From: Candidatus Peribacteraceae bacterium
GTDB lineage: Bacteria > Patescibacteriota > Gracilibacteria > Peribacterales > Peribacteraceae
Direction of reading: 5' to 3'
NCBI GenBank assembly: GCA_028717505.1
Contig: JAQUNQ010000001.1
Span: 1 to 30,314, forward strand
Length of the DNA stretch: 30,314 nucleotides
Shown one piece after another: positions 13,201-22,098 of the stretch (position 1 is its first letter; each line of letters begins with the position of its first letter). The notes beneath the pieces were generated by a model, which worked only from the letters and a program-made list of their open reading frames with translations, had not been told where the DNA came from and did not search any database. The translations under genes were made by a program, and so were the position numbers.

Positions 13201-13252
13201 CCCTGAGGGCCTCTCGGGCCCGAAGGGGAGCAGCCGCGCTCTGTCGAATGGG
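13201..13252. repeat. Family-1 palindromic repeat, divergent copy downstream of tRNA-Phe
   Basis: Minus strand CCCATTCGAC...CTCAGGG has the same termini as 21811-21850; GC-rich interior differs. Confidence 0.6.
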
Positions 13253-13269
13253 TACCAAAAGAACCATCG

Positions 13270-13296
13270 CGGCGAAGCGGAGCGAAGCCGGATGGT
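13270..13296. repeat. Family-2 repeat (ACCA-TCCGGCTTCG-x-CTTCG) abutting tRNA-Phe CCA
   Basis: CGAAGCCGGATGGT (13283-13296) is identical to 21782-21795. Confidence 0.7.
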
Positions 13297-13539: not shown

Positions 13540-13541
13540 CA

Positions 13542-13570
13542 CTTCGCTCGCTATGGCGAGCTTCGCGTGA
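13542..13570. repeat. Family-2-like CTTCG-hairpin-CTTCG unit after tRNA-Ala
   Basis: CTTC-GCTCGC-tatg-GCGAGC-TTCG begins 3 nt after the CCA. Confidence 0.55.
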
Positions 13571-13629
13571 AGAGCCACGTTCTCCCGGCGCCCTCTTCTT
13601 CTCGTCCTTTATTTGCTTATTTAAAATGT

Positions 13630-21090: not shown

Positions 21091-21747
21091 ATGGAAGAAC
21101 TCCTCGATGTGTATGATCTGCAGGATCGCCTGATTGGCGTGGAGGAGCGCTCAAAGTTCTACCGCGAGATCGAGGCGGAGTTCAAAGCAAAGAGGAAGAT
21201 CACGAAGAAGGTGAAGACCATCCGCGTCCTCCTCATGAATTCGCAGGGACGCGTCTACGTCCAAAAGCGCAGCCTCATCAAGATGCACAACGCGGGCCTC
21301 TACGACAAGACGATCGGCGGACACATTCTCCATGGTCATACCGTGCACGTCACGCTCGTGAAGGAATGCGCGGAGGAGCTCGGCATCCCCGCGGTCATGC
21401 TTCCGGATGACGAGTTCGCCCGCGCCGTCACCTCGACGAACCTCGGCATCATCGGCATCTTCAAGAAGACGGAACTCGTCACGCATTACCCCTCCGTCCG
21501 GAAGACGAAGGAGGAGGATATCCTGCAACCGTTCATCAATACCTTCATCATTGGCTACTACGACGGAGCCATCCGGTTCTGTGACGGAGAGTCCTCCGGC
21601 ATCGAGGTCTTCGGTCTCCCGGAGCTGCGGGACGCCATTCTCAAAAATCCCGAGCGCTACACGGACGACCTGCGTCACTTCATCGAGAAATATCAGCAGC
21701 ACATTATTCCCGTCAAAAAGATCAAGATTCCTCCTGCGGAGGTGTGA
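21091..21747 (+). CDS. Nudix hydrolase, IDI type-1-like (218 aa)
   Basis: ELLDVYD...IG; YVQKRSLIK...GLYDKTIGGH; variant Nudix box GHILHGHTVHVTLVKECAEELGI. ATG 6 nt after TATGAT. Confidence 0.8.
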   Translation: MEELLDVYDLQDRLIGVEERSKFYREIEAEFKAKRKITKKVKTIRVLLMNSQGRVYVQKRSLIKMHNAGLYDKTIGGHILHGHTVHVTLVKECAEELGIPAVMLPDDEFARAVTSTNLGIIGIFKKTELVTHYPSVRKTKEEDILQPFINTFIIGYYDGAIRFCDGESSGIEVFGLPELRDAILKNPERYTDDLRHFIEKYQQHIIPVKKIKIPPAEV

Positions 21748-21766
21748 TGTTTCGAACAAACATCTC

Positions 21767-21811
21767 GGCGTAGTCCGCAGACGAAGCCGGATGGTCGGGG
21801 CGGCGCGACTC
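21767..21811 (-). repeat. Duplicated 3' end of tRNA-Pro plus family-2 repeat
   Basis: TGGTCGGGGCGGCGCGACTC at 21792-21811 equals 21927-21946; followed on the minus strand by TCCGGCTTCG-tctgcgga-CTACG-CCG. Confidence 0.85.
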
Positions 21812-21929
21812 CCATTCGACTCGTCCCGCACGTGCGGGACTCGCTCAGGGTAAACTTCTCGTCGCGCTTTCGTTCTCACGACAGTGTGGCTTGCCATGAG
21901 TGAACGAACGGAGTGAGTGAATCGAATGG
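21812..21929. mobile_element. Non-autonomous REPIN/MITE-like mini-element at the tRNA-Pro 3' end
   Basis: Terminal inverted repeats CCATTCGACTC (21812-21822) / GAATCGAATGG (21919-21929), 10/11 match; two inverted family-1 units; flanked by a 20-bp direct repeat of the tRNA end. Confidence 0.65.
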
Positions 21930-22003
21930 TCGGGGCGGCGCGACTCGAACGCGCGACCTCCTGCTCCCAAAGCAGGCACTCTAGCCAACTGAGCTACGCC
22001 CCG
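21927..22003 (-). tRNA. tRNA-Pro (UGG)
   Basis: CGGGGCG-TA-GCTC-AGTTGGCTA-GAGT-G-CCTGC-TTTGGGA-GCAGG-AGGTC-GCGCG-TTCGAGT-CGCGC-CGCCCCG-A-CCA. Confidence 0.95.
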
Positions 22004-22098
22004 GTCATGCGTAGGATACAGCAAAACTTCTGTTGTGTGGCTAGAGCGCATTTTGTTTCGCATTGCTCGCCCCGGTTGCTCGTAGGAGACAGCAAAAC
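21997..22098. repeat. 31-bp direct repeat of the tRNA-Pro 5' end and promoter
   Basis: 21997-22027 vs 22068-22098, 26/31 identical, 71-bp offset. Confidence 0.7.

Follow-up and report, generated by a model that had tools for sequence, protein, structure and literature searches.

A candidate family of miniature, gene-end-replacing insertion cassettes with a conserved hairpin module at bacterial tRNA genes

We analysed a stretch of 30,314 nucleotides (the window) from a Candidatus Peribacteraceae bacterium (assembly GCA_028717505.1, contig JAQUNQ010000001.1, positions 1 to 30,314), in which the tRNA-Pro(UGG) gene is followed, after a 115-bp element, by a second copy of its own 3' end. We propose, with moderate confidence, that the 135 bp formed by this element and one copy of the repeat are a miniature, non-autonomous insertion cassette that replaces the end of its target gene, and that it belongs to a widespread family whose folded site would be recombined with the target by an activity acting in trans. 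The putative site is composed of P1', a short inverted copy of the target bases that can pair with the displaced gene end to form helix P1, and of a conserved module called M. From sequence comparisons the targets are mostly tRNA genes, the joint being placed in the T-loop between nucleotides 58 and 59, and they also appear to include the end of glmS. The family is confined neither to the source genome nor to its phylum.

Results

The unit at the tRNA-Pro(UGG) gene

A first-pass annotation of the window had described a 20-bp duplication of the tRNA-Pro 3' end flanking 115 bp. This duplication was verified: the terminal 20 nt of the gene are present as exact copies at 21792-21811 and 21927-21946, and 23 of 24 nt are identical when the next four bases are included. 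Chance alone would give about 4e-4 exact repeats of 20 nt in 30 kb, by the estimate (3e4)^2 / (2 x 4^20). The repeat spans the T-loop to the CCA, in agreement with the proposed insertion at the tRNA 3' end with an att-like geometry, and the 115-nt interval between the copies (21812-21926) has no open reading frame (ORF) of its own, which bears out its description as minimal and non-coding. An assembly artefact had also been envisaged; an independently assembled 1792-nt contig of the source run covers 21300-21952 with 0 differences, and the structure therefore does not result from binning or scaffolding.

An empty form of the site, as the first-pass annotation had suggested looking for, was found in an unrelated freshwater metagenome (run X4), where a 151-nt contig joins 21790 to 21926 and skips 135 bases; this contig is the only one, is short and of low depth, and probably derives from a relative. 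In the empty form the family-2 trailer reported behind the second tRNA copy adjoins the tRNA directly, which identifies it as the native trailer of the gene. In the occupied form (Table 1), the displaced tRNA copy provides the 3' strand of P1 followed by an unpaired acceptor strand, and the last GA of M completes the 20-nt repeat.

The transposon-like terminal inverted repeats (TIRs) of the first-pass annotation were only partly upheld. The right arm (21812-21850) is 95% complementary to a unit of the tRNA-Ile trailer at 2371-2409, and the two arms are paired in the RNA minimum-free-energy fold (z = -2.9), the left arm with 21812-21822. The left arm itself is degenerate and shares only the outer 11 nt (CCATTCGATTC versus GAGTCGAATGG, 10/11) and an inner CTCATGG; together with the CCA of the tRNA it is complementary to the 3' end of M. 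A homologous left arm is present in the tRNA-Leu(UAA) element of the source genome (contig C130). The inverted left arm is a trait of the source lineage, and the inverted hairpin doublet typical of REPINs (doublets of REP, repetitive extragenic palindromic, sequences) is degenerate at both tRNA-Pro and tRNA-Leu and absent from the flavobacterial members described below. The defining conserved part of the element is not a pair of TIRs. It lies on one side only, beside the displaced copy, and is made of P1', GAGAAGTTTA and hairpin P2.

Two further observations concern the surroundings of tRNA genes. The 5' side of tRNA-Pro is also duplicated: a block of 31 nt at 21997-22027 (minus strand), which comprises tRNA nt 1-7 and the 24 nt before them, is repeated 71 nt further upstream, at 22068-22098, with 84% identity, and an inverted D-arm copy, GCGCTCTAGCC, lies between both blocks at 22038-22049. 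This 5' duplication looks like the equivalent of the 3' cassette on the other side of the gene, but of another element family. In addition, nearly every tRNA of the source genome has behind it one to three hairpin modules, which fall into three families (window examples are 2371-2409, 13201-13292 and 13540-13580). In families 1 and 2 the first module pairs with the encoded CCA, and GAGAAG precedes the right-hand arms of all three families.

Table 1. Features of the tRNA-Pro(UGG) locus in window coordinates, and small GIY-YIG genes on other contigs of the source genome
Feature	Position	Strand	Basis or remark
tRNA-Pro(UGG), intact	21927..22003	minus	ARAGORN; Rfam tRNA 66.4 bits
Left repeat copy, tRNA-Pro nt 57-76	21927-21946	minus	last 20 nt of the tRNA, GAGTCGCGCCGCCCCGACCA
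Left arm, degenerate reversed family-1 hairpin unit	21894..21926	minus	sequence, trailer comparison, fold
Spacer, CAAGCCAC...	21868..21893	minus	no family-wide conservation
P1', GCGCGAC, inverted tRNA nt 59-65, 5' strand of helix P1	21861..21867	minus	covariation
Module M	21810..21860	minus	alignment A1; covariance model R1, 54.3 bits, E = 2e-12
Parts of M: invariant GAGAAGTTTA; helix P2 (CCCT/…GGG); tandem GAG/CGA motifs around an 18-nt variable hairpin, GTCCCGCACGTGCGGGAC; closing ...GTCGAATGGGA			
Displaced copy of tRNA-Pro nt 59-76, including CCA	21792..21809	minus	sequence, repeat, trailer comparison
Native tRNA trailer, family-2 hairpin TCCGGCTTCG...CGCCGAGATG	21752..21791	minus	type common behind the tRNAs of this genome
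Small GIY-YIG genes	C2:19518-19757, C17:4710-4985, C57:1372-1596		L172-L174; those of relatives, L175-L204

Recurrence, insertion polymorphism and conservation

The search for the same layout at other tRNAs, also advised by the first-pass annotation, was successful in the source genome and beyond. The 170 nt behind all 45 tRNAs of the source genome (1.07 Mb, 60% G+C, 96% complete, from a landfill metagenome) were compared. The layout was found twice behind tRNA-Gln(CUG), the two copies being separated by 830 bp of DNA with 30% G+C, once behind tRNA-Leu(UAA) and, in a truncated form, behind tRNA-Pro(GGG); each of these units, like that of tRNA-Pro(UGG), has a P1' that fits its own tRNA. An analogue based on the family-2 hairpin, with an exact 18-nt copy, follows tRNA-Ile(GAU).

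All units share one order: P1' (tRNA nt 59-65, up to 69, inverted), M (31-60 nt), and then the tRNA sequence from nt 59 to the gene end. The consensus of M consists of GAGAAGTTTAYCCYGAGC, a variable part and YCGARGGRA, with tRNA nt 59 onward directly after it. M has its minimal length of 31 nt in 73 of the 133 distinct instances, and the longer forms have a variable hairpin in the apical loop. A 19-nt M pattern matched 12 of 61 relatives, compared with none for the reversed control pattern, and the covariance model (R1) detected M in 12 of 151 genomes drawn evenly across the phylum, from at least nine families. An exact-pattern scan of species-representative genomes returned at least 120 contigs; among the matches listed Flavobacteriia dominate, and the other carriers are Peribacteria, Woesebacteria, Curtissbacteria, Parcubacteria, TM6, some Gammaproteobacteria and other metagenome-assembled genomes (MAGs). 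These counts describe samples, in which related genomes are not independent. The layout is uniform across carriers and involves at least 15 kinds of tRNA. Copy numbers of M are low, 1-6 per flavobacterial genome and 4-7 in carriers of the candidate phyla radiation (CPR), and up to five copies stand in tandem, with unit periods from 57 nt (Aequorivita) to about 137 nt.

A second empty site was found at an orthologous locus of Mariniflexile that comprises a recombinase-like gene, tRNA-Thr(UGU) and tRNA-Tyr. Four species carry one unit at this locus. In eight other species the site is precisely empty, the tRNA abutting the sequence found after the second copy in carriers. Among the four carriers M is 90-97% identical, compared with 40-72% for the spacer. 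These alignments indicate that the unit is a true insertion and that M is under purifying selection.

Since the geometry is that of an integration site, M units might be cargo-less attL/attR sites, or cis-mobilizable remnants, of tyrosine-integrase islands inserted at the tRNA T-loop, M being the arm region bound by integrase and excisionase. The regenerated tRNA, the displaced fragment and the repeat starting in the T-loop are standard for such sites, but P1' is an inverted copy of target nt 59-69 located 31-60 nt away, and no core-type site with a 7-nt overlap is formed. Similarly, the tandem arrays resemble accretion at att sites, whereas unit sizes cluster at 57-140 nt with no decay from kilobase islands. 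M is near-identical across phyla; to our knowledge, integrase arm sites are not conserved even between genera. The covariation of helix P2, described below, is moreover that of a hairpin, and its wobble pairs are strand-asymmetric. The flanks of tRNA genes are hot spots of integration (tycheposon preprint, 10.1101/2020.12.28.424599), and tRNA-gene islands are the subject of the Islander paper (PMC4383910). True integrases do stand beside M arrays at three loci (L069, L109 and L156), but most M genomes have no integrase near M. Among the 2.9 million viral contigs of IMG/VR four M matches were obtained, of which two were coding coincidences and two were real; a viral origin of M units was rejected on this count, which also weighs against the att-site explanation. 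We consider the att-site explanation improbable. The collapsed remnant of a larger island suggested in the first-pass annotation is likewise a poor fit, given the purifying selection on M and the position of the previous tRNA-end copy, which is at most 200 nt upstream in 126 of 154 instances.

At L156 (IMGVR_UViG_2778261482_000001), a 13.7-kb integrase element from a Flavobacterium-like genome is flanked by 60-nt repeats of the tRNA end and terminator, and an M unit with a diverged tRNA-end copy lies just inside one of its ends. Either this island landed in the displaced copy of the M unit or it carries an M unit along.

Covariation of P1 and P2

The two helices were analysed in 111 distinct instances. 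P2 (YCCY/RGGR plus a G:C pair) is 99.5% paired, and one of its pairs is U:A in 85 instances and C:G in 23; in P1 the paired fraction is 79%, and double changes are seen at 7 of 8 pairs. Covariation scored 0.438, compared with 0.211 ± 0.010 after shuffling (0 of 500 shuffles as high) and with at most 0.17 when the partners were slid. The ten bases GAGAAGTTTA between P1' and P2, together with the GAGC and CGA flanks, are invariant or nearly so in alignment A1. An exact 18-nt pattern served to anchor A1, so that part of the conservation in the anchored columns is built in; this does not apply to the covariation in P1, in the 3' strand of P2 and in the closing motif.

P1' is specific for its cognate tRNA, with 5.5 contiguous pairs compared with 2.8 in shuffles. 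In other members of the family the pairing extends up to 11 Watson-Crick pairs, to nt 69, and P1' is therefore an inverted copy of the target rather than a copy of the 5' strand of the tRNA's own T-stem. Read on the tRNA-sense strand, P2 contains 49 G-U-type pairs, no A-C mismatch and 3 unpaired cells in all; this strand asymmetry points to a folded single strand and not to a protein site in duplex DNA.

No conserved promoter or other motif was detected upstream or downstream of M, where only A/T richness was seen, and no position upstream of P1' is conserved. Rfam 15, searched at gathering and permissive thresholds with the window and 10 carrier loci, returned tRNA and rRNA only, with nothing else credible at E up to 10, and no Rfam family, including the self-cleaving ribozymes, reached its gathering threshold on M. 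Hammerhead, hairpin, twister and pistol cores and k-turns were compared with M by eye, as were dif/Xer arms, IncP nic sites, DnaA boxes, boxA, signal recognition particle (SRP) RNA and conserved region III (CR-III) of RNase P; only partial word matches were found and none is claimed. Searches of the literature by words and by literal sequence gave no description of M units. The first-pass view of the element as undescribed thus holds within Rfam 15 and the searchable literature.

M is always in sense orientation with respect to the tRNA. At several loci it lies between co-oriented tRNAs of one operon, and on one contig the unit is in a 16S-23S spacer; such units are therefore transcribed. This raises the possibility that M is a functional structured RNA co-transcribed with tRNAs, in which a T-stem-like helix, the 31-nt module and a free acceptor-strand mimic would act in cis or in trans. 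Such an RNA could, for example, be a small ribozyme, or a decoy or processing element recognized by a factor that binds tRNAs universally, such as the CCA-adding enzyme, RNase P or RNase Z. The partial tRNA copy would then be part of the function, and gene transfer, together with homologous recombination in the adjoining tRNA sequence, would spread the units. RNA motifs usually show unpaired bases that are invariant, helices that covary and an apical hairpin of variable length, as M does, yet no Rfam family or ribozyme class was matched. The G-U pairs of P2 on the sense strand only, the conservation of M while the spacer drifts and the failure to find a mobility enzyme also agree with an RNA function. 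Against it, many flavobacterial units have an intrinsic terminator ahead of M, behind the tRNA. Sequence that could pair with the displaced copy as a 5' acceptor strand was sought within the unit and was not enriched (5.37 compared with 5.40 in shuffles), which leaves the supposed mimic with no pairing partner there. The patchy distribution, the low copy number, the presence or absence among congeners, the tandem arrays and the units with cargo are not what such a function predicts, and an M-like module followed by a recoded gene end behind a protein gene, glmS (see below), is hard to reconcile with a tRNA-specific RNA. We therefore regard the RNA explanation, including its account of the tRNA copy and of the spread, as unlikely.

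Origin of the second gene end, and cargo

CCA is present in the repeat only in lineages whose tRNA genes encode it, and the flavobacterial copies lack it, as do their genes. The copy therefore derives from the gene and not from the mature tRNA, and an origin by reverse transcription from mature tRNA, which an 18-nt copy resembling a primer-binding site might have suggested, was ruled out.

In the source genome an M-like module, TAAGTTTTGCCCTGAGCGCAGTCGAAGGGCA, directly follows the stop codon of glmS (TIGR01135, 644 bits) on contig C32:1473-1532 (L223:173-232, minus strand; R1 match). It is followed by a second A-K-S-V-T-V-K-stop, that is, the last seven codons and the stop codon, with five differences from the functional copy, all of them synonymous. 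Since both glmS ends have evolved under coding constraint, a duplication at the time of insertion is impossible and one of the two was imported. On the evidence of these sequences, the cassette brings its own gene end. glmS is the classical attTn7 gene. A DDE-type miniature inverted-repeat transposable element (MITE) was rejected: the repeat measures 15-24 nt or longer, may include a terminator and is not of fixed length, and copies that differ only at synonymous sites imply that it is not made at insertion.

Some M-bounded units contain genes. In the source genome they carry two AT-rich ORFs without a family, and in a relative such a unit contains an AbiTii abortive-infection protein. In a proteobacterial MAG (L087) an 80-aa GIY-YIG nuclease gene lies inside an M-bounded unit; the spacer of this unit ends, before M, in ~31 nt (CCTGCTGGACC…GGAT) that are also present in the gene-less unit beside it. 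On contig C57 of the source genome there is a broken GIY-YIG gene, behind which come a degenerate M and 12 nt copied from tRNA-Gly.

Behind tRNA-Gln of the source genome, C6:3341-5090 (L031) forms an island of 30-45% G+C in a 60% G+C genome; its two ORFs (175 and 264 aa) have no Pfam or PADLOC family. A further degenerate copy of the tRNA-Gln end is present at C6:11014-11031.

Search for an enzyme, and points against the cassette interpretation

Across the searches made, no recombinase, transposase or nuclease was linked to M; the associated integrase or nuclease that the first-pass annotation had hoped for could not be tied to the cassette. In the source genome (96% complete), TnpB (PF07282), reverse transcriptase and RtcB were not found, and the single PF00589 integrase match is a weak fragment on a contig other than that of the window. 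About 150 M loci gave 12 integrase matches by tBLASTn; nine of them are the syntenic recombinase-like gene upstream of the tRNA-Thr operon, and the remaining three are real islands that share the same hot spot. Most M loci have no adjacent integrase, and adjacency was discarded as a link to M.

The source genome encodes a RAYT domain (NF047646, 112 bits, with HUH and Tyr motifs) fused to an RdgB/Ham1 ITPase in one 387-aa frame (C34:4435-5598; L171:784-1947, minus strand), an arrangement that is unusual among RAYTs. Two M carriers, G034 (100% complete, 5-7 M copies) and G027, gave no Y1_Tnp match, while Y1 is present in 17 of 26 genomes of the family that lack M. Co-occurrence therefore does not discriminate in favour of Y1/RAYT as the M enzyme, and a RAYT is not found in every M carrier. 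An IS200/IS605 end, or the end of a TnpB omega-RNA, was rejected because there is no PF07282 match, the Y1 match is a RAYT and not an IS200 transposase, and a duplication is present. In a relative of the same class (G057), each of the IS200-like genes has 5-10 TGA codons in frame, suggesting that this genome uses a UGA-recoded code of the Gracilibacteria type.

Small genes encoding only a GIY-YIG catalytic domain (79-91 aa) lie directly downstream of tRNAs and in the same orientation in 3 of 3 cases in the source genome and in about 19 of 30 in relatives (Table 1). They occur in 1-10 copies per 1-Mb genome, one of them (L177) is followed by a tRNA-His end copy, and they look like a selfish gene family resident at tRNA flanks. 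As candidates for the M enzyme they were rejected in spite of this strong tRNA linkage: a P2-like module is present within about 250 nt of only 1 of 46 such genes, and they are found in all M-positive relatives but also in 61% of the M-negative ones. A GIY-YIG homing cassette was not retained either, as the unit of the window contains no GIY-YIG gene.

These data bear on the proposal that the unit is a REPIN-like REP doublet moved by a RAYT (Y1 HUH), or a gene-less derivative of the small GIY-YIG cassettes behind tRNAs, the tRNA-end copy being a by-product. In its REP version it draws on the RAYT-RdgB fusion, on about 20 P2-only hairpins dispersed in the source genome and on the inverted arms of the tRNA-Pro and tRNA-Leu units, but the flavobacterial units have no inverted left arm, and Y1 follows the distribution of M poorly, as described above. 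We know of no case in which REP/RAYT or IS200-type movement makes 18-24-nt copies of gene ends. In its nuclease version, it relies on the position of the GIY-YIG genes directly behind tRNAs and on those found in M-bounded units (L087 and, degenerate, C57), against which stand their rare proximity to P2-like modules and their frequency in M-negative relatives. Both versions appear very unlikely to us.

Five points other than the lack of a linked enzyme also stand against the cassette. No circular or excised form was seen among assembler contigs, in which rare variants are invisible. The strand asymmetry of P1 is weak, with 48 wobble pairs compared with 36 A-C mismatches. The near-identity of a 31-nt motif across phyla is puzzling for an element with no dedicated enzyme. 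M is located in operons of tRNAs and rRNAs that are transcribed, and its conservation and covariation would be accounted for equally well by a function as RNA. Finally, the cassette model does not explain how both a matching P1' and a matching gene end are acquired when the target changes.

Discussion

According to the cassette interpretation, which we favour, the mobile unit consists of a replacement gene 3' end, a free spacer open to optional cargo, P1' (the first 7-11 target bases after the joint, inverted) and M. The replacement end keeps the target gene intact, and after insertion M adjoins the original gene end, now displaced downstream. By pairing of P1' with this displaced end, M would sit as a large structured 'loop' on a T-stem-like helix. 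M and P1 together may thus form a folded single-strand recombination site comparable to an integron attC site or to an IS200/IS605 end; the guide-like P1' strand would pair with the target and fix the joint, and a protein supplied in trans would act on the folded site. As the same target bases follow both junctions, this pairing might be used alike to excise a cassette, to insert it again and to build up tandem arrays, and the family is possibly still active at present.

Such units share traits with several known systems. Like tyrosine-integrase islands and prophages at the T-loop or 3' end of tRNA and tmRNA genes, and like cis-mobilizable elements that lack an integrase, M units regenerate an intact gene by means of an element-borne 3' end, push the original 3' end away so that it becomes a direct repeat beginning in the T-loop, form arrays at the same site and occasionally carry defence cargo. 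They differ from these islands by their size (57-140 nt), by the lack of an integrase in or near most of them, by a hairpin module, conserved across phyla, that lies beside the displaced copy and is preceded by inverted target bases, and by their use of the glmS end. In an integrase core site inverted arms surround a 6-8-bp overlap, whereas P1' and its partner are 31-60 nt apart, on either side of M.

The likeness to integron attC cassettes lies in small arrayed units, each ending in an imperfect palindrome that has unpaired bases, inner parts that are conserved and a central hairpin that varies, in an outer 3' stem strand that comes from the target side, and in optional cargo that lacks a recombinase of its own. 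M units are anchored at the end of a tRNA gene or of glmS, unlike attC, and their outer stem is target-specific instead of a shared GTTRRRY. The integron R''/R' boxes (RYYYAAC/GTTRRRY) were not evident in M by eye, no IntI-specific search being made, and the likeness is architectural only.

M also resembles REP/REPIN-RAYT and IS200/IS605-derived palindromes, as a short non-coding hairpin with conserved bases 5' of its foot, with strand-specific folding and with a 5' 'guide' that pairs with sequence beyond the hairpin; the source genome has a RAYT. In contrast to REP sequences, which are usually of high copy number, M units are present in 1-7 copies per genome and duplicate gene ends, and some carriers lack a detectable Y1. 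Finally, free-standing GIY-YIG homing endonuclease genes are found in tRNA clusters, as exemplified by SegB of phage T4. M units share with them the position beside tRNA genes and, at a few loci, contain a small GIY-YIG gene; however, the element of the window is gene-less, and most GIY-YIG cassettes have neither M nor a tRNA-end copy.

A more ambitious version of the cassette interpretation, tentative and rather doubtful, is that M and P1' form the core, acting in cis, of a new class of mobile cassettes that bear a guide and replace gene ends. Pairing with tRNA nt 59-69, or with the last codons of glmS, would set the point of strand transfer, a spare gene end would be brought along, and only a widespread host activity or a catalytic fold of the element itself would be needed. 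This would explain how the units spread over Bacteroidota, Patescibacteria and other phyla with no dedicated gene.

The ends of tRNA genes are classic landing sites of mobile DNA, and M units use gene-end replacement there at a size 100 times smaller than that of islands. Their 31-nt module is conserved from Flavobacteria to CPR bacteria and is listed in no RNA or repeat database. They make partial tRNA copies, which confuse predictors of tRNAs and of islands, they build arrays of variable copy number inside tRNA and rRNA operons, and they can deliver small cargo, such as abortive-infection and nuclease genes, into very reduced genomes. If M were instead an RNA serving a host function, it would be a widespread unannotated RNA motif linked to tRNAs. 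If pairing between P1' and the target does set the point of insertion, M units would represent a new and very compact form of nucleic-acid-guided site choice.

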